This document shows, piece after piece, positions 33,874 to 42,425 of a stretch of DNA of 64,000 nt; positions within the stretch are counted from its first letter, which is position 1; every line of letters begins with the position of its first letter. Under the pieces are notes generated by a model. That model saw only the letters and a program-made list of their open reading frames with translations, did no database searches and was not told the DNA's origin. The DNA is from an uncultured Sulfurospirillum sp. Its GTDB lineage: Bacteria; Campylobacterota; Campylobacteria; Campylobacterales; QNZT01. The DNA is taken from contig CAZNIT010000047.1 of NCBI GenBank assembly GCA_964573205.1, forward strand, positions 777-64,776. The letters are read 5' to 3'. The position numbers and the translations under genes were made by a program.

Positions 33874-35037
33874 ATGGACTCGAACCCCCAGTCGATGCAG
33901 GCTCATCCGGAGCCGAACACTTTTGTACAAAATTATTGGGATATCGTCGGAGGTATGATCCTCTCAATTATAGCTTACTACTTTCATTCACAGGCGAACG
34001 ATTCACTAAGCACTCTTTTTGCGGCGCTCGCGATTATCTTTTTATCCATAACAGTTTCCGAAATAGCCGATATCCTAGCTGAAAGATTGGACGAACCGTA
34101 TGGGAGCTTCGTACTTACTTTCACCGCTGTGGCGGTTGAAATACTACTTCTTTTTAACATCATGCTTCAGGTTTCCAATTCTCCCGAAGCTATGCAGACC
34201 GTTCAAGGAGGTATCATTTCGGCTGTCATAGTGGATATGAATGTTCTTTTGGGACTTGCCGTATTTATCGGAGGTCTTGCTTTTACCGAGCAGCAGCATA
34301 ACGAAGATACATCAAGTTCATATACGACTATCCTTTATGTCGCGGCACTCGCACTTTTAGTCCCGAGCATACTCGGTCACAGCGGTCATGATAAAGAGAC
34401 GGTCGAGAAAGCGAGCTATATGATAGGAATCTTGCTCTTTTTGTTTTATATTACGATACTCATTTTTCAGACAAAAACGCACACTCACTTTTTCAAAGCC
34501 ACCGCAAAAAGCAGAATTTTCAGATATAAACGAAAACTTGCCGAAGGAGAAGAGATAATAGACGAAAATTACATTTTCGAAAAACTCTCCACTTTCGCCA
34601 ACTTTATGGTAATCTTCGCTCTAATTTTTTTAATAGGAGTCTTAGCTGAAATCTTTGCGATCGACGGCATGAGCGTCTTTAAAGAAGCCGGTATCTCTAC
34701 GGGACTTGCGGGTCTTACCATCGCCATCATCTCGGTGGCTCCCGAAATTTTTACCGCGGTAAAAGCGGCGAAAAACGATCAAATCCAAAGAGTCGTAAAT
34801 ATAGCCATGGGCGCTTCCACCGTTTCGATACTTTTAACGGTTCCGGCTCTTTTGATACTAGGCTTTATAGCCGATGTCACACTTCCTCTTAGCTTCAACC
34901 CTCTTGAGATAGGTGCTTTGATATTTACTATCATACTGGCTTGGAAAACTACGGATGACGGTGAGACGAACTATTTTGAAGGCATTTCCCATTTAATGCT
35001 CTTTTTATGTTATACGGTAATAGCAGCGTTATATTAA
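33874..35037 (+). CDS. Ca2+/H+ antiporter (CaCA, ChaA/Cax-like)
   Basis: About 11 TM helices; alpha-repeat glutamates in TAVAVE and ISVAPE; DGETNYFEG. Confidence 0.85.
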   Translation: MDSNPQSMQAHPEPNTFVQNYWDIVGGMILSIIAYYFHSQANDSLSTLFAALAIIFLSITVSEIADILAERLDEPYGSFVLTFTAVAVEILLLFNIMLQVSNSPEAMQTVQGGIISAVIVDMNVLLGLAVFIGGLAFTEQQHNEDTSSSYTTILYVAALALLVPSILGHSGHDKETVEKASYMIGILLFLFYITILIFQTKTHTHFFKATAKSRIFRYKRKLAEGEEIIDENYIFEKLSTFANFMVIFALIFLIGVLAEIFAIDGMSVFKEAGISTGLAGLTIAIISVAPEIFTAVKAAKNDQIQRVVNIAMGASTVSILLTVPALLILGFIADVTLPLSFNPLEIGALIFTIILAWKTTDDGETNYFEGISHLMLFLCYTVIAALY

Positions 35038-35046
35038 GGAGTGAAA

Positions 35047-36159
35047 ATGAAAAGAAGAGATTTTATCAAAACCACCATCGCAACGGCCGCAGCGGCAAGC
35101 ACACTAACAGGATGCAGAGATCTTCCCAAAGATCCGAACTACAACAAAGAGAAAAAAACCTTCAACTACAACAGAGGCAAGAAGGTAAAGATAAAACTGG
35201 CGACAAGCTGGCCCGCGAACTTTCCCATCATGGGCGAAGGAGTGGAGAGATTTGCTACAAGACTCACTCAATTAAGCGGCGGAAGCATCGAAGTCAAAGT
35301 CTTTGCCAAAAATGTTCTGGTTCCGGCTCTTGGCGTATTTGACGCGACAAGTGCGGGGGCGATAGACGCTTACCACTCGGCCGCTTACTATTACAAAGGC
35401 AAAAATGAAGCTTTCAATCTTTTCACGGGATTTCCGTTTGGGCTAACCGACACGGAGATGAACGCTTGGTTTGACTGGGGAGACGGCATGAGACTTTGGA
35501 GAGATCTCTATGCAAAATACAATCTCGTCCCTTTCAAAGGCGGGAACACCGGTGTTCAGATGGGCGGATGGTTTAAAAAAGAGATCAAATCTCTCGACGA
35601 TTTAAAAGGTCTAAAGATGAGAATACCCGGTCTAGGCGGTGAAGTTTTCGCAAAACTGGGCGTAAAACCGACTCTTCTACCCGCAGGTGAGATATATGTC
35701 GCGCTTGAGAGAAATATGCTAGATGCCACAGAGTGGCTTGGACCCTCACTCGATACTAAGATGGGATTTCACAAAGTCGCAAAATATTACTATACCGGAT
35801 GGCATGAGCCCGCAAGTTCTCTTAGTTTGGTATTTAATAAGAAAAAATTCGACAAACTCTCGGATGAGCAAAAGCTTATGATAGAGATGGCTTCGCAAGA
35901 GTTGAACGCTACGATGAACAGTCAATTTCAGTACGAAAACGCAAAAGAGTTAAAAATCGTAAAAGAAGCCGGAGTAAAAATCGATTCCCTACCGAAAGAT
36001 GTGTTAAAAGCCGCAAAAAAGGCTATGTTGGAAGTAGCGGAACAAAAAAGCGAAGATAGTGACGATTTTAAAAAAGTTTGGGAAAATATCTATGCCTTTT
36101 TAGAGCTAAACCGCGACTGGACGGATATAGGACTTAAAAAATATCTTGAAATAAGATAA
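35047..36159 (+). CDS. TRAP substrate-binding protein, TakP-like, Tat-exported lipoprotein
   Basis: KRRDFIK plus LTGC; NTGVQMGGWF, GLKMRIPGLGG, DATEW and YYYTGWHEP. Confidence 0.9.
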   Translation: MKRRDFIKTTIATAAAASTLTGCRDLPKDPNYNKEKKTFNYNRGKKVKIKLATSWPANFPIMGEGVERFATRLTQLSGGSIEVKVFAKNVLVPALGVFDATSAGAIDAYHSAAYYYKGKNEAFNLFTGFPFGLTDTEMNAWFDWGDGMRLWRDLYAKYNLVPFKGGNTGVQMGGWFKKEIKSLDDLKGLKMRIPGLGGEVFAKLGVKPTLLPAGEIYVALERNMLDATEWLGPSLDTKMGFHKVAKYYYTGWHEPASSLSLVFNKKKFDKLSDEQKLMIEMASQELNATMNSQFQYENAKELKIVKEAGVKIDSLPKDVLKAAKKAMLEVAEQKSEDSDDFKKVWENIYAFLELNRDWTDIGLKKYLEIR

Positions 36160-36340
36160 ACCTTAAAATAGATATATGCAAAGTTATTATGAACTAGACT
36201 AAACAATACTCTTGTTCCAAATGATTGTCGTCTCATTAATATTTTAAGTTCAACATCCGGATATGTTAAAAAATATCTATATCTCTAGTTAATACTCGGT
36301 TCACACTTTTTTGGTATTATTGCATATACAAGGAGCATTT

Positions 36341-36727
36341 ATGAAGATTTTTTTATCTCTTTTTTTATTTATAGGATCACTTTTGGCGCAACAAAGCTTT
36401 TACTACTCTTTCGGTAAAAAAGTCATGCTTACAAAATTACCTACTTCAAGAGCGCTGAGAGATCAAAACGTCACATTTTACGAAAATCAAAATGGACAAA
36501 AAATCGGCGTAAAACAAGAAGTTATCATCGGTTGTGACGATTTAATCGCATGTAAAAAAGTATTAAGAGATTATAATATCACTTACATTGAAGAGCTCTC
36601 CAAAACGATTTATCTATTAAAACTTCCAAAAAATAGTGATCCATTCGAGATATCCAACTCGCTCTATAATGAAGATCCCGTACAATTCGCGCATCCTAAT
36701 TTCATAAAAAAGAGGAAAATGCGTTGA
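36341..36727 (+). CDS. Secreted stand-alone subtilase prodomain-like (I9-type) protein
   Basis: Signal peptide; EVII...YNITYIEELSKTIYLLKLP...ISNSLYNEDPVQFAHPNF, the usual end of a subtilase propeptide (V.yAePN); stop overlaps the protease start. Confidence 0.6.
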   Translation: MKIFLSLFLFIGSLLAQQSFYYSFGKKVMLTKLPTSRALRDQNVTFYENQNGQKIGVKQEVIIGCDDLIACKKVLRDYNITYIEELSKTIYLLKLPKNSDPFEISNSLYNEDPVQFAHPNFIKKRKMR

Positions 36728-37872
36728 TAAAAAAAAGAAAATTATATATCTGTTTATCGATAGTTTTCATTTTGTTATCAGGATGCGGAGGTACCGACCG
36801 CGTACCCGAAGAAAACGATACGAACGAACCAAGACTTCAGGAAGATCCGACCAAAGAACCCTATTTTTCATATCAGTGGTATCTATCTTTCACGAACAAT
36901 GAATTTACGCAAAGTGCGAACATAAACAAAAATTCAAGTATAAATATAAAAGGTGCGTGGGATATCACAAAAGCCGAAGGCATCGTAGTAGCGGTAATCG
37001 ACAGCAATTTCGAACCGACGCATAAAGATTTGGCGGCAAATGTCTTTAGTGTTTACAATGCCGATGCCCAAGACAGCTATGTTTTAAATGATAGCGACGA
37101 ATCCTCTCATGGTACGGCTTGTGCCGGATTCATAGCGGCACCGTCGAACAATCTGGGTATAACCGGCGTTGCACCCGAAGCGAAAATCGTCTTAATCGCA
37201 CAAGAATATGTTGACGACGCGGCCACTATCAGAGCATTCGAATATGCCAAAAAAGAAGGAGCCAAAATAATCAGCAACAGTTGGGGAACTGAAAACGTAT
37301 CCGAAGCCGTAGCTAGAGAATTTCAAAATCTAAAAGATCAAAATATCACTATCTTTTTCGCTAGCGGAAACGACGCAGCTGATCTGGATACTCCTTTTTT
37401 AACGGACGAATCCGAACTTCCAAGCGTCATAGGTGTTGCAGCCACAAACGAGCTGAACCGACTCGCCAGCTATTCAAACTACGGGAAAAATATAGATATC
37501 TTGGCACCCGGCGGCGAGTTTTTAGGATTGTTAGGGCTTGACGATAGCGGACCCAAAGGAGTATATTTCGATACATACACGTTCCCAAACGGATACAGTC
37601 TCCATATTGACGACGATCATGCTTTTGTAAACGGTACTAGTTTTGCGTGTCCTCTGGCCGCCGGAGTCGCTGCGTTGATGCTAGGTGCCAATCCGAATCT
37701 AACTCCCGATCAAATCAGAGAGATCCTCATAACAACCGCCGAAAAGATAGAAGAAGATGAAGTTTATTATGATCAAAACGGTTTTAATATAAAAAGAGCT
37801 TATGGAAAAATCAACGCTCAAAGAGCCGTTTTAGCGGCGAGAGATCTTTTGAATCAAACAAACCTAAAATAA
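36724..37872 (+). CDS. S8 subtilase lipoprotein lacking a cis prodomain
   Basis: Lipobox LLSGC; EPYFSYQWYL about 25 aa after the Cys; triad VAVIDS, HGTACAG and NGTSFACP; oxyanion-hole ASGND. Confidence 0.92.
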   Translation: MIKKRKLYICLSIVFILLSGCGGTDRVPEENDTNEPRLQEDPTKEPYFSYQWYLSFTNNEFTQSANINKNSSINIKGAWDITKAEGIVVAVIDSNFEPTHKDLAANVFSVYNADAQDSYVLNDSDESSHGTACAGFIAAPSNNLGITGVAPEAKIVLIAQEYVDDAATIRAFEYAKKEGAKIISNSWGTENVSEAVAREFQNLKDQNITIFFASGNDAADLDTPFLTDESELPSVIGVAATNELNRLASYSNYGKNIDILAPGGEFLGLLGLDDSGPKGVYFDTYTFPNGYSLHIDDDHAFVNGTSFACPLAAGVAALMLGANPNLTPDQIREILITTAEKIEEDEVYYDQNGFNIKRAYGKINAQRAVLAARDLLNQTNLK

Positions 37873-37955: not shown

Positions 37956-40430
37956 TTGAGCAAAATAGCAAATTCGTTTAAAAACAATGTCTTATTACCG
38001 GTATCTATTATCTCTTTGATAATCCTTGCCGGTCTATTCTATTATTTACCGAAAATCACGCTCGAAAATACTCTTCAAACAACAACGAAAAATAGTGACG
38101 ATTTAGTAACACATATGCGAATATTTCGCTCTTATTACACGACGAAAGTGCTATCGAAAGTAAAAGCTCACACGAATTTGAAAATAAACTACGATCACGA
38201 AGCAAAGAACGATACCATTCCGCTTCCCGCAACATCCATACATGATCTGGGCAAACTTTTTACAAACGGTACGGATACGGAAGTGAGAATGTACAGCAAC
38301 TATCCGTTTCCAAACAGAAAAGATAGAGTTCTGGATCAATTTGAAAAAGATTCTCTCTCTTTCTTCGAAAAAGATTCGAGCAAGCCCTTTATCAAAATGG
38401 AAAATATCGACGGTAAAGAGGTGGTTAGATATGCCGTACCCGATTTTCTCACTAGTCAAGGCTGCGTAAATTGTCACAACACCAGACCCGACACTCCAAA
38501 AACCGACTGGAAACTCGGTGACGTAAGAGGCGCCATAGAGATCATTACGCCTATTGATAAAGCTTTAGCGGCAAATCATCAGATGCAAAAACAGATACTG
38601 ATATTCATATCCATAAATATTCTATTTTTGATAGGATACTACATCTACGTATCTATAAACCAAAAGAAAGAGTTGCAAAAAATAAATGAAAAATTCGAAA
38701 AAAACATAAAAGAGCAGACTCAAAAACTTAGCCTAACTTCGTCCGTTTTCGAAAATGCGACTGAAGGTATAACCATTTGCGACACGAACAGCGTTATAGT
38801 CAACGTAAACAAGACATTTACAAATATCACGGGATATACGAAAGATGAAGCGATAGGGAAACACATATCTTTACTCAAATCAGGCAAACAAGATAAAGAA
38901 TTTTATAAAAATATGTGGGATAGTATAACGAAAAACGGCTACTGGGAAGGAGAGATTACCAATAAAAGAAAAAACGGCGAACTCTTTGATGAAATGTTGC
39001 ATATATCCACCATAAAAGACGCAGATGGTAAAATAAGCCACTATATCGCCATCTTCTCGGATATAAGCGACAAAAGAAAAACTCAAGAGAGCATCTACAA
39101 TTTGGCTCATTTTGATTCACTCACTAAAATAGCCAATAGAAATTTTTTCCAAAAAAAGCTCCTAAACTCGATACAAGAGCTAAGACCCGGTAAAAGTCTG
39201 GCCTTGATGTATATCGATCTGGATCGATTTAAAATCGTCAACGACTCTCTAGGACACAGTACGGGGGATAAACTGCTATCCGGCGTTACCAAAAGAATCC
39301 AAAATTTACTTGACGAAGAGGATTTTTTCGCCAGACTAGGCGGAGATGAGTTCGCCATTATCTCACAAGGAGACTATACCACCGAGATATGCGAGCAAAA
39401 AACCGTCGAAAAAGCTATAAAAATAATTGAAGCGGTAAATAAAGTTTTCGTCATAAACAACAATCAACTAAGCATAGGATCCAGTATAGGTATAGCGCTT
39501 TATCCAAGAGACGCCAAAAACGCGGAAGAACTTATGCAGTATGCCGATACCGCGATGTATCATGCCAAGGAGACCGGAAGAAATCGTTACACGATATATG
39601 TCGGAAATATCGTAAAAGAGACCAAATACAGATACAGGGTCGAACAGGAGTTGAGAATAGCGATAAACAACGGCGATATCACATTGGCATATCAACCTAT
39701 CATCTGCGCCGACAGCGGTAGAATAAAAGGTTTCGAAGTATTATCGAGATGGTATCACAAAGAGCTGGGATCCATCTCTCCGGATCTATTCATATCTATA
39801 GCCGAAGATAGAGGGCTTATAGCCGACTATACGTACTCGATGTTAAAAACCGCTTGCAGACAAATAAAAGAGTGGAATATGACGTATAACGAAAAATTCT
39901 ATTTATCGGCAAATATTTCACCCGTCCATTTTTTACAAAGCGATCTTGTCGAAAAAACTCACGCCATTTTAGAAGAAGCCTCTTTACTTCCTTCAAATCT
40001 AATTCTGGAGATAACCGAAAATGTTATTATAGAAAACAAAGAGCTGGTTTTAAGCACATTGAACGAATTTAATGAATTAGGTATCAAAATAAGTATCGAC
40101 GATTTCGGAACCGGATACTCCTCCATAGGTTACTTAAAAGACTATCCGATTGACTACCTCAAAATTGATCGTACATTCGTTTTAAATACTCCCAAAGATA
40201 AAAATAACAAAAATATCTGCTCGACCATAACATCTCTTGCCAACAACTTCGATATAGACATAATCGCCGAAGGTGTCGAAACGGCGGAAAATGCACAGTT
40301 TCTCAAGAGCCTCGGAGTTAAATATCTGCAAGGATACCACTTTTCAAAACCGAAAGCCGCCGATGAGTGGAATAAATTTTTCGACTCTTACTCAGAAAAA
40401 AGCGAATCAAAACATAAACTGGAAGTATAA
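37956..40430 (+). CDS. Heme-c (Tll0287/DUF3365-like) - PAS - GGDEF - EAL sensor enzyme
   Basis: Two TM helices around RMYSNYP...RYAVP...GCVNCH...WKLGDVRGA; PAS VNKTFTNITGY...WEGEITNKRKNG; GGDEF; EVL; DDFGTGYS. Confidence 0.9.
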   Translation: MSKIANSFKNNVLLPVSIISLIILAGLFYYLPKITLENTLQTTTKNSDDLVTHMRIFRSYYTTKVLSKVKAHTNLKINYDHEAKNDTIPLPATSIHDLGKLFTNGTDTEVRMYSNYPFPNRKDRVLDQFEKDSLSFFEKDSSKPFIKMENIDGKEVVRYAVPDFLTSQGCVNCHNTRPDTPKTDWKLGDVRGAIEIITPIDKALAANHQMQKQILIFISINILFLIGYYIYVSINQKKELQKINEKFEKNIKEQTQKLSLTSSVFENATEGITICDTNSVIVNVNKTFTNITGYTKDEAIGKHISLLKSGKQDKEFYKNMWDSITKNGYWEGEITNKRKNGELFDEMLHISTIKDADGKISHYIAIFSDISDKRKTQESIYNLAHFDSLTKIANRNFFQKKLLNSIQELRPGKSLALMYIDLDRFKIVNDSLGHSTGDKLLSGVTKRIQNLLDEEDFFARLGGDEFAIISQGDYTTEICEQKTVEKAIKIIEAVNKVFVINNNQLSIGSSIGIALYPRDAKNAEELMQYADTAMYHAKETGRNRYTIYVGNIVKETKYRYRVEQELRIAINNGDITLAYQPIICADSGRIKGFEVLSRWYHKELGSISPDLFISIAEDRGLIADYTYSMLKTACRQIKEWNMTYNEKFYLSANISPVHFLQSDLVEKTHAILEEASLLPSNLILEITENVIIENKELVLSTLNEFNELGIKISIDDFGTGYSSIGYLKDYPIDYLKIDRTFVLNTPKDKNNKNICSTITSLANNFDIDIIAEGVETAENAQFLKSLGVKYLQGYHFSKPKAADEWNKFFDSYSEKSESKHKLEV

Positions 40431-40607
40431 AAAGGATTTTTTACTTCGTCACTACTACCATTAAATTTAAAAATCAAAAAAATTATTTAAATTATTTTAT
40501 AAAAAAGTACGAATTATTCTAAATATTTAATATAATAAACCTCGATAGAGCCACTATTGTCTATTATTAATCTTATAATGTTAAAATTTCAAACTTTGGA
40601 GGTGAAA

Positions 40608-42425
40608 ATGAAAAATCAAAAACACACTATTGCATTGGCTTTTATTCTAACAATTGGCACGGCTTTTACGGGATGTGGAGGCGGCGGAGGCGGCTCCGAT
40701 ATCGAGATCTTCTCTTTCTCGTCACCGTCTGAGGTAAGTGTCGATATAGGGGATATTACGGCTATAGATGTAGATGCCAACGATCCGGACAACAACAATG
40801 TAACATATTCGCTTTCCGGTAGTGATGCCGATAAATTCACGATTAATTCCGATAACGGAGAAGTATCTTTCAAAACCGAAGCGACACCCGGTACTTATCG
40901 TATAACGGTAACGGCTAGTGCCGGTAAAAAAAGCATATCGCAAAATATTACGATAACCGTAGCCATTCCGGCAAATCATGCACCGGTCATCACAAACGGC
41001 GATAGCGTAAAAGTAAACGAAAATCAATACAACGCGATCGATATCGAAGCAAAAGATGCGGACGGCGATCCTTTGACATACTCCATAACGGGAGGAATCG
41101 ACGGCGATGACTTTTTGATAGATCCGACTAGCGGAATAGTCGTATTTAAAATACCGCCGGTATTTGAAAGTAAAGACAAATACACCTTTACCGTCGGTGC
41201 AAGTGACGGTATAGACACTACAACCAAAGAGATAACCGTAAACATACAAAATGTAACGGATACTCTAGCACCGGTGATTACGACTATGCCTAGCGTAACC
41301 GTCGATGAAAACCAACACTACGCCATAGATATAGACGCCGTCGATGTAAACGGCAATACCATAACCTATTCGATAGAAGCCGGAGATGACGCCGATAGTT
41401 TCGATATCGACCCGGCCACCGGAATCGTAACTTTCAAGAACGCGCCGGATTACGAAACGAAAAAAAGTTACGTTTTCACCGCTGCGGCCGCTAATTCAGA
41501 GGGTTCTACGACTAAAAGGATCACCATATCCATAAACGATCTTGACGGAAAGAGTCTCGTCTTTAAAACCGGACAGACTCAAAAATATAAAACGGGCGAT
41601 GACGGTGATTATGAAGCCGGAAGAGCTAGAAGTCTTACCGTACATAAAAACAAAACGCTTACCGAAAACATTACTAAAGTCACCTGGAAAAACAACGATT
41701 TTCTACACTCCGCCAATCATCTCGATGCCGTAAAATACTGCAACGCCATAACTCATGGAGGATATAAAGACTGGAGACTTCCGACCATAGACGAATTAAC
41801 GAATCTTGCTAACAGAGGAGCGGCAAATTATTTTGGCTCTTTTAATATCATAAAACCCGATAATTATTATTGGTCAAATACGCCATATGTGAGAGAGACA
41901 AATAAATACTATACATTCGGATTCGATCTTGGCGAAGATGCCGTCGAATCAAACGATAAGATAAAATACGTAGCTTGTGTCAGAAAAGAGTTTACAACCG
42001 ACGCAAACCCGCTTGAAAAGAGATTTACAAAATATGAAGATATCGTTACGGATACAAAAACGAAGCTACAGTGGTACGATCCGGCACTAGATCCTATAGC
42101 GACGGTTGGAACTTGGGATGAAGCATTGGACGGATGTAACAATCTTACGGCCGGTGGAAAAGATGACTGGAGACTTCCTAACATAAACGAGCTTATCTCT
42201 ATCGTCGATCGATCGAAAAAAAGCGGAAGTGCCTTTTATGATATTTTTAAAGCGGTAGAACCGAATGCAAATGCTAAATATACATCCACTTATTATTCTT
42301 CTACTACAAACCATGATAAGATTACTAGAGCTTGGGGATTTGATTTTACCAGAGCCAGAGATATAGCAAGTATCTCGAAAACTTTAGTAAAAAACTACAG
42401 ATGCGTAAGAACTCTTGGAGAGTAA
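40608..42425 (+). CDS. Surface lipoprotein A: three cadherin-like repeats plus two DUF1566 (Lcl C-type-lectin-fold) domains
   Basis: Lipobox FTGC plus poly-Gly; APVIT..V.V.ENQ..AIDI.A.D.DGD repeats; KTGQT..Y..GDDGDY; DWRLPT and DWRLPN; ends YRCVR. Confidence 0.85.
   Translation: MKNQKHTIALAFILTIGTAFTGCGGGGGGSDIEIFSFSSPSEVSVDIGDITAIDVDANDPDNNNVTYSLSGSDADKFTINSDNGEVSFKTEATPGTYRITVTASAGKKSISQNITITVAIPANHAPVITNGDSVKVNENQYNAIDIEAKDADGDPLTYSITGGIDGDDFLIDPTSGIVVFKIPPVFESKDKYTFTVGASDGIDTTTKEITVNIQNVTDTLAPVITTMPSVTVDENQHYAIDIDAVDVNGNTITYSIEAGDDADSFDIDPATGIVTFKNAPDYETKKSYVFTAAAANSEGSTTKRITISINDLDGKSLVFKTGQTQKYKTGDDGDYEAGRARSLTVHKNKTLTENITKVTWKNNDFLHSANHLDAVKYCNAITHGGYKDWRLPTIDELTNLANRGAANYFGSFNIIKPDNYYWSNTPYVRETNKYYTFGFDLGEDAVESNDKIKYVACVRKEFTTDANPLEKRFTKYEDIVTDTKTKLQWYDPALDPIATVGTWDEALDGCNNLTAGGKDDWRLPNINELISIVDRSKKSGSAFYDIFKAVEPNANAKYTSTYYSSTTNHDKITRAWGFDFTRARDIASISKTLVKNYRCVRTLGE

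Follow-up and report, generated by a model that had tools for sequence, protein, structure and literature searches.

A separately encoded subtilase prodomain beside a lipoprotein protease in Campylobacterota: a candidate trans-acting foldase and inhibitor

Separately encoded prodomains and their relatives

The subtilase prodomain is the textbook intramolecular chaperone, and to our knowledge the protease ASP with its partner ORF2, a pair found in a few Gammaproteobacteria, is the only studied natural case in which prodomain function is encoded separately. Here we describe a gene pair of an uncultured hydrothermal-vent Sulfurospirillum sp. (Campylobacterota), located in a stretch of 64,000 nucleotides (nt) of contig CAZNIT010000047.1 (positions 777 to 64,776; assembly GCA_964573205.1) that we call the window. 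The first gene (36341..36727, forward strand) encodes a secreted protein of 128 residues, a stand-alone prodomain and candidate trans foldase or inhibitor by its open reading frame (ORF), its homologues, a match to Pfam PF22148, and AlphaFold2 (AF2) and Foldseek results; the second (36724..37872, forward strand) encodes a 382-residue S8 subtilase lipoprotein without a prodomain, recognized by its Peptidase_S8 match and by matches to subtilisins in the PDB. We consider it probable that the prodomain of a subtilase was split off here by gene fission at the autoprocessing site, and that it now serves in trans as a foldase and temporary inhibitor. A preliminary description made from the DNA letters had proposed a prodomain encoded as a separate secreted protein beside a prodomain-less lipoprotein subtilase, and this is borne out by the predicted fold, a weak Pfam match, natural fusions, a conserved and coupled gene pair with congruent trees, and a model of the two proteins linked in one chain.

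ASP requires the separately encoded ORF2 for its maturation, and ORF2 inhibits ASP with a half-maximal inhibitory concentration of 84 nM (PMC5638518). Operons of the asp-orf2 type have been reported from Vibrio, Shewanella, Chromobacterium and Pseudoalteromonas, and the C-terminal Lys of ORF2 touches the ASP catalytic centre (PMC5638518). ASP itself, a large enzyme of the kexin family, is exported to the exterior of the cell (PMC13492141). The window pair and its relatives resemble this system in that a subtilase without a cis propeptide is encoded next to a small secreted partner, which folds like a prodomain and ends in a basic residue; in the window, the partner is predicted to combine a prodomain-like core with an N-terminal extension, as ORF2 does. 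There are also differences. First, the small protein has no detectable sequence homology to ORF2: the model PF18492 (ORF_2_N) matches one of 14 homologues, at E=0.18, and the ORF2 chain 3wqb_B was missed by profile search. Second, the window protease has 382 residues, no P-domain and a lipoprotein signal peptide, and ASP is not among its best 60 PDB sequence matches. Third, in the window and most relatives the small gene comes first and the protease gene second; orf2 follows asp, an order shared only by three related loci (L039, L045 and L046). Finally, the pair belongs to Campylobacterota, and its fused relatives place the split at the autoprocessing site. In function the closest described system would be the external chaperone ASP/ORF2; by descent the pair is to be placed with the ordinary pro-subtilases that have a fervidolysin-type prodomain.

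Classical cis prodomains (MEROPS I9, Inhibitor_I9 and Fervidolysin_NPro-like, as in pro-subtilisin E and fervidolysin) share with the small protein the core fold, the motif of the last strand and a short tail that ends at P1, and the predicted docking is like that of pro-subtilisin E (3whi) and fervidolysin (1r6v); the fused relatives are ordinary members of this classical group. Unlike a cis prodomain, the small protein is a separate polypeptide with a signal peptide of its own, and autoprocessing is neither needed nor possible. Free proteins with the subtilisin propeptide fold are also represented by Plasmodium SUB1-ProM, Toxoplasma MIC5 and an Arabidopsis propeptide-like inhibitor, each of which binds and inhibits a subtilase (PMC6993865), but these are not reported as operon partners, whereas the target in the window lacks a prodomain and its partner appears to be translationally coupled to it. 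A bacterial subtilase paired with a dedicated inhibitor is found in the potempin-KLIKK operons of Tannerella forsythia (potempin C with mirolase, PDB 8ehe), and mirolase is a close structural match of the window catalytic domain. The potempin inhibitor gene stands in the same operon as its protease; potempins are not known to adopt the fold of a prodomain, and mirolase brings a prodomain of its own. Within the literature available to us, searches returned no relevant account of a split subtilase in Campylobacterota or of a separately encoded propeptide.

The small protein, its fused relatives and the split point

The small protein is a true prodomain homologue. The evidence for this is weak in sequence alone, clearer in structure prediction and decisive in the comparison with fusions. 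At the sequence level, no curated Pfam or NCBIfam model scores above threshold on the window protein: Inhibitor_I9 of Pfam does not match it, NCBIfam returns no match, and PF22148 (Fervidolysin_NPro-like) matches at 19.6 bits (E=1.2e-3), the same model being matched by five of 14 homologues. The AF2 model, with a predicted local distance difference test (pLDDT) score of 81, contains strands at residues 54-65, 82-85, 90-94 and 114-123 and helices at residues 68-75 and 101-109, that is, the strand-helix order of a prodomain over residues 54-123, with an N-terminal beta extension ahead of it. The top PDB match of this model in Foldseek is ORF2 of the ASP-ORF2 complex (3wqb_B; template modelling (TM) score 0.70 on the target over 111 columns) and the next is the PC1/3 prodomain bound to furin (9fid, TM 0.72-0.76), both with a Foldseek probability of 1.00. 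The preliminary description had cited ASP and ORF2 as its precedent, had suggested a Foldseek comparison with prodomains as a check, and had staked its reading on a prodomain fold; the fold is present in the model, and the comparison led back to that very precedent.

Residues H118, P119, N120 and F121 (HPNF, 36692..36703) stand, in the AF2 model, where the final strand of the prodomain core ends, and are invariant in all 14 close homologues. Classical propeptides carry a helix-capping E-x-D/N motif (PMC6993865), and by analogy HPN may be the counterpart of their E-x-D. Two other conserved elements were observed in the small protein. Cys65 and Cys71 (Cys-x5-Cys, 36530-36553) are invariant in the 14 close homologues and in three more distant ones, a pattern that suggests a periplasmic disulfide; among 159 representatives, a C-x(4-7)-C pair is present in 71 and no Cys at all in 41, and the pair is found in none of the three fused forms. 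R37 is nearly invariant and lies in a loop predicted with low confidence, LPTSRALRD (36443-36460, residues ~35-40). The furin prodomain has an internal cleavage site, and by analogy cleavage at a secondary site in the R37 loop might help to remove the prodomain.

Natural fusions tie the small protein to subtilases directly. An exhaustive profile search with the small protein gave 503 clusters (50% identity) at E<=1e-3. Among the best 150 of these 503 clusters, 147 are stand-alone proteins, nearly all of 109-163 residues (one is an 81-residue fragment), and three are long. In the three long proteins, P0219 (473 residues), P0236 (460 residues) and P0276 (579 residues), the whole profile matches the first ~130 residues at E 1e-18 to 1e-21, and a signal peptide, a domain like the small protein and an S8 domain follow each other without a break. 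A fourth fusion, of 666 residues, is encoded in a Bacteroidales metagenome-assembled genome (MAG; L047, 585-2585), and its prodomain, likewise N-terminal to the S8 domain, matches PF22148 above the cut-off, at 25.8 bits.

The same fusions show where the gene was divided. The window small protein ends in VQFAHPNFIKKRKMR, in which VQFAHPNF is followed by a basic tail of seven residues, IKKRKMR (36704..36724), recognized from stand-alone and fused relatives alike; its last residue, the invariant Arg128, is the predicted P1. The preliminary description was right about the VQFAHPNF motif but took it for the end of the protein, which lies seven residues further on. The stand-alone representatives end in R in 156 of 159 cases and in K in two of 159; exactly seven residues follow xPN[F] in 151 of the 154 that have a recognizable motif, with K or R common at P2, P4 and P6. 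In the fused proteins, the junction reads FAHPDF-ILKKERR followed by SITD (P0219), FAHPDF-HLHKKRR followed by TITD (P0236) and FAHPDF-LKERKKR followed by VNDP (P0276), or, in general form, HPDF, six residues and R, and then S/T/V-(I)-(T/N)-D at the start of the catalytic domain; in all three the prodomain is directly N-terminal to the S8 domain and has its C-terminus at the processing site. Since stand-alone and fused proteins share the same seven-residue, Arg-ended point, the gene appears to have been split at the autoprocessing site. By this comparison of sequences, the stop codon of the split genes falls at the expected position of self-cleavage of the fused pro-enzyme, after a basic P1, the free small protein is the exact equivalent of a prodomain already released, and the catalytic domain of the split forms appears to have acquired its own lipoprotein signal peptide and a variable tether.

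The pair is conserved well beyond the window. The 14 close homologues of the small protein all have 113-133 residues; their contigs, from independent assemblies, carry the same pair with a 4-nt overlap at 44-71% identity, and an S8 gene of 377-387 codons follows the small gene on every close-homologue contig examined. Where the protease is 46-50% identical to that of the window, a gene of 126-131 codons lies directly 5' of it, with a product that can be aligned to the small protein. When one genome of each species was scanned, 40 loci came to light, 39 of them in Campylobacterota (Sulfurospirillum, Sulfurimonas, Sulfurovum, Halarcobacter, Aliarcobacter, Arcobacteraceae and Helicobacteraceae). 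The fusion in the Bacteroidales MAG is the sole locus outside this phylum; at its N-terminus (YYYAFGEKIFL...) it matches the small protein's beginning. Both genes are visible at 36 loci: at 31 the small gene is followed directly by the protease gene, with junctions of the type TTGA, ATGA or TAATG or gaps of a few nt, at three (L039, L045 and L046) the order is reversed, and at one (L047) the two are fused. The split is thus conserved in other Campylobacterota, as the preliminary description had asked, and the homologues are normally split rather than fused. The pairing also survives the change of gene order: in the three reversed loci, all in Campylobacterota MAGs (L039, 1446-2869; L045, 1193-2839; L046, 916-2878), the small gene lies 1-14 nt downstream of the protease gene. 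The protease of L046 (519 residues) is without the lipobox; an ordinary signal peptide and a long additional N-terminal region stand in its place.

Neighbour-joining trees of the prodomain part and of the catalytic part recover the same subclades, with the three fused forms outside the split forms. These are quick distance trees with midpoint rooting and are indicative only; read in that way, they agree with joint inheritance of the two genes and with an ancestor that was fused. In the protein collection, the small protein is called either nothing or 'hypothetical protein' and the protease only 'S8 family serine peptidase'.

Finally, we modelled the two window proteins with AF2 as a single chain, with the lipoprotein signal peptide and tether as the linker and an alignment composed of stand-alone prodomains, proteases and the three natural fusions. 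The mean pLDDT is 90.1 and the predicted TM score 0.89, with the small domain at pLDDT 93-98 and the linker alone disordered. Among the best PDB matches of the linked model by E-value are the two entries whose single chain holds both a prodomain and a catalytic domain, the fervidolysin proenzyme 1r6v, aligned over 474 columns, and unautoprocessed pro-subtilisin E (3whi), aligned over 452-454 columns with TM 0.75-0.78 on the target; alignments of this length must cover both domains, so that the predicted docking is the canonical one. The small protein is thereby predicted to lie over the active-site face in the canonical pro-enzyme arrangement, an arrangement that would place its tail in the active-site cleft.

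The protease and the signals of the locus

The protease is a member of peptidase family S8, with the subtilase fold, the Asp-His-Ser order and the oxyanion Asn. Its catalytic residues stand in canonical motifs, D93 in VAVID (codon 37000-37002), H129 in SHGTACAG (37108-37110) and S306 in GTSFAC (37639-37641), together with the oxyanion N216 (37369-37371), all on the forward strand; the intact triad of the preliminary description is confirmed. PF00082 (Peptidase_S8) matches at 170.4 bits against a cut-off of 21.8, and a sequence search of the PDB has subtilisins, thermitase-like enzymes and mirolase as its top hits, with E ~1e-24 (subtilisin BPN' at E=4.6e-24). In Foldseek, the catalytic domain has a TM score of 0.8-0.85 to subtilisins.

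The N-terminus of the protease is that of a lipoprotein. The signal peptide MIKKRKLYICLSIVFILLSG-C (36724..36786) ends in the lipobox LSGC, with Cys21, and conforms by sequence to the pattern [LVI][ASTVI][GAS]-C; the lipobox Cys is found at the equivalent place in almost all related proteases. A low-complexity tether of residues 22-44 (36787..36855), with pLDDT < 50 in the linked model, connects the putatively lipid-anchored Cys to the catalytic domain, which begins at EPYFSYQWYL (residue 45; 36856..37869) by the position of its motifs and has pLDDT mostly > 93. The 23 residues between Cys21 and EPYFSYQWYL leave no room for a propeptide, as had been pointed out in the preliminary description. 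Among the relatives, the tether ranges from ~15 to > 100 residues and is variable in sequence, rich in G/S/T/P/N/D/E. The protease has 319 homologues at E<=1e-20; among the 120 of these that were listed, most have 355-400 residues, the longer ones bear other N-terminal domains, and none is fused to the small domain.

The same description called the protease kexin-like, which holds in part. The enzyme has a SWG-x-E motif, and the third residue ahead of its catalytic His is acidic, traits that we take to be reminiscent of furin, but it lacks the P-domain of the kexin/furin subfamily S8B (Pfam finds Peptidase_S8 only, and the protein ends ~75 residues past the catalytic Ser), and the Cys of HGTACAG is not conserved within the family. 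Furin can be aligned to the window protease over the catalytic domain only. An invariant D-E-S-E loop adjoins subtilisin BPN' position 166, at the bottom of the S1 pocket, being aligned to BPN' 167-170 in an uncertain register. Together, the basic tail of the partner, the SWG-x-E motif, the acid at His-3 and the D-E-S-E loop suggest a preference of the protease for basic residues, the one that acidic S1, S2 and S4 pockets give to enzymes of subfamily S8B.

The signals of both genes can be read from the sequence, all on the forward strand. The small gene runs from ATG at 36341 to TGA at 36725-36727 and is preceded by the Shine-Dalgarno sequence AAGGAG (36330..36335), 5 nt 5' of the ATG. An alternative TTG start at 36311 would give 138 residues, but the 14 close homologues, with their 113-133 residues, can all be aligned from the ATG. 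The Sec signal peptide occupies residues 1-19 (36341..36397), MKIFLSLFLFIGSLLA, with cleavage predicted between LLA and QQ; AF2 predicts a low-pLDDT helix within it at residues 3-14, and all aligned homologues have an equivalent hydrophobic N-terminus. The protease ORF begins at TTG 36724 and has its last position at 37872. Its Shine-Dalgarno sequence, AAGAGGA (36710..36716), lies 7 nt 5' of the TTG within the small gene; this signal is written in the tail's own Lys-Arg codons (AAG AGG A), and similar purine-rich AAR/AGR codons are found in most relatives. The first gene's stop and the protease start share the 4 nt TTGA (36724..36727), and nearly all related loci have equivalent junctions or gaps of a few nt, an arrangement that points to translational coupling of the two genes. 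The upstream 128-residue ORF with its own signal peptide and the overlap had both been noted from the letters, correctly. A run of eight A (36728-36735) after the protease start codon encodes the Lys-rich n-region of its signal peptide. Scans for promoters and terminators were uninformative in this AT-rich DNA, where 16 promoter-like sites were counted (5.4 would be expected) and no terminator was seen.

The neighbouring genes (33874-36159 and 37956-42425) encode a membrane protein of the Na/Ca-exchanger family, a DctP-type solute-binding protein with a twin-arginine-like N-terminus (RRDFIK), a Tll0287-PAS-GGDEF-EAL protein and a protein with cadherin and Lcl_C domains. In the closest relative (L005), the two downstream neighbours are syntenic and the upstream genes are different, and the pairs of other relatives adjoin Rrf2/FlhA or biosynthetic genes; the conserved unit at the locus is the gene pair alone.

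Alternative explanations, proposed mechanism and significance

Several points tell against a trans-acting foldase derived by fission. The PF22148 score on the window protein is under the gathering threshold of 21, a profile search of PDB sequences with the small protein returned chance-level matches and nothing significant, and for the small model by itself Foldseek gives modest E-values (8.8e-3 to 2e-2). The complex was modelled with an artificial covalent link and an alignment that holds only three natural fusions, and from residue 128 on the linked model has pLDDT < 50. Which residues form the S1 pocket is ambiguous, with D-E-S-E aligned beside BPN' position 166 rather than on it. At one further locus of the 40 (L031, 2489-2878), the 2.5 kb to either side of the small gene contain no S8 gene; it is flanked by a 335-residue ORF upstream and by transporter-like ORFs on the opposite strand, and a partner protease may be encoded elsewhere in the same genome. 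Lastly, some archaeal subtilase propeptides are tight inhibitors that are dispensable for folding (PMC10580911).

The last two points also bear on the alternative that survives best, although we hold it to be unlikely, namely that the small protein is an inhibitor only, a co-expressed guard in the shape of a prodomain, and that the lipoprotein protease folds by itself. Such a guard would resemble the stand-alone I9-type inhibitors of fungi, plants and apicomplexans, or the potempins of Tannerella. Purely inhibitory stand-alone propeptide-like proteins do exist (PMC6993865), the small gene of L031 is an orphan, and the computed results fit a foldase and an inhibitor alike. However, the stand-alone inhibitors of that study target SUB1, which has a propeptide of its own (PMC6993865), as none of the 120 listed homologues of the window protease does. 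The fused relatives moreover point to descent from a cis prodomain in the same lineage, the tight one-to-one translational coupling is conserved, and ASP, the one propeptide-deficient subtilase that has been studied, needs its partner for maturation (PMC5638518).

A programmed -1 frameshift that yields some fused pro-enzyme is very improbable. The heptamer A_AAA_AAG (36706-36712) is of the classic dnaX type, stands in the right frame 13 nt 5' of the stop, and a shift of -1 from the small-gene frame leads into that of the protease. This candidate was rejected nonetheless, as the heptamer is absent from most related loci: it is found only in the window and five others (L012, L013, L014, L015 and L016), whereas most read ATC AAA AAA AGG, ATA AAA GAG AGG, GTC AAA GAA AGA and the like, and several relatives have junctions that do not overlap or are differently phased. 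The shifted product would also bear an internal lipoprotein signal peptide, and the basic tail, which is conserved, and the Shine-Dalgarno sequence embedded in it account for the Lys-Lys codons.

We give as little credence to the possibility that the small protein is an unrelated secreted neighbour with some other function that merely lies beside the protease. It would be in keeping with sequence-only searches, which placed the small protein in no significant named family, but it does not agree with the natural fusions, the strict C-terminal ruler and the congruent trees, nor with adjacency in both gene orders and a canonical docking that is confidently predicted. The least probable explanation, to which we attach practically no weight, is that a fused pro-subtilase gene was broken near 36724 by sequencing, assembly or a mutational frameshift: a one-base change in the overlap would join the frames and rare fused relatives are known, but a frameshift of assembly is ruled out by identical independent contigs (a Logan contig of word depth 22 from a hydrothermal-vent metagenome run matches 36300-37300 with no mismatch and no gap, and a 151-nt contig from a second study crosses the junction, 36712-36862, without a difference, so that the frameshift near 36724 by which the preliminary description might have fallen is not there) and by conservation across species (dozens of species show the same split at 30-70% identity), and the protease gene comes with a Shine-Dalgarno sequence, a start codon and an entire lipoprotein signal peptide, all of which are absent from genuine fusions.

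Fission of a pro-subtilase gene at its autoprocessing site remains our preferred explanation, with the small protein, on sequence comparison and modelling together, most likely a trans-acting foldase and temporary inhibitor. Under such a mechanism, the upstream gene would supply a free periplasmic prodomain, exported by Sec and freed of its signal peptide by signal peptidase I, and the downstream gene, coupled to it through the 4-nt overlap, would supply the catalytic domain with its lipoprotein signal peptide and flexible tether. Both proteins would thus leave by way of Sec, and coupling would keep them in roughly equal amounts. In the periplasm, the free prodomain would dock in the canonical position on a catalytic domain that is still unfolded or has just folded, its tail K-K-R-x-x-R-COOH occupying subsites S6-S1 with the terminal Arg in S1, and the pair would in this way reach the state of a prodomain:enzyme complex after autoprocessing, with no cleavage step. 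The prodomain would act as a folding template and then as a tight temporary inhibitor, and the enzyme would become active once the prodomain dissociates or is degraded. Prodomains are normally degraded, and the 'reusable' inhibition imagined in the preliminary description is pure speculation.

A likely benefit of a prodomain in trans is that the mature enzyme keeps its N-terminal lipid anchor. Autoprocessing of a cis prodomain would cut the enzyme off its anchor, so that supply in trans would keep it tethered. Relatives that retain other N-terminal modules, such as the 519-residue protease of L046 with its small gene downstream, would fit this idea. We lean, if only slightly, towards a wider view, in which ~500 clusters in Campylobacterota form a family of obligate trans prodomains, independent of ASP/ORF2, whose fission at the autoprocessing site preserves N-terminal anchors or domains and whose terminal Arg mimics the product of self-cleavage.

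The provision of a prodomain in trans to a subtilase without a propeptide is a known principle, not a new one; what is new is the family, the phylum, the lipid anchoring and a fission point that can be traced. The pair would represent a second, apparently independent trans-prodomain system, widespread in Campylobacterota from vents and sediments, with living fused relatives that show the exact site at which the gene was cut and with retention of the N-terminal lipid anchor as a plausible selective reason for the split. The rule of length and terminal Arg is sharp and can be tested by mutagenesis. For annotation, the finding offers a name for ~500 clusters of 'hypothetical proteins', and in practice a prodomain supplied in trans may serve as a design for subtilases with free or modified N-termini. 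If true, the Campylobacterota pair would be a natural and evolutionarily traceable conversion of an intramolecular into an intermolecular chaperone.

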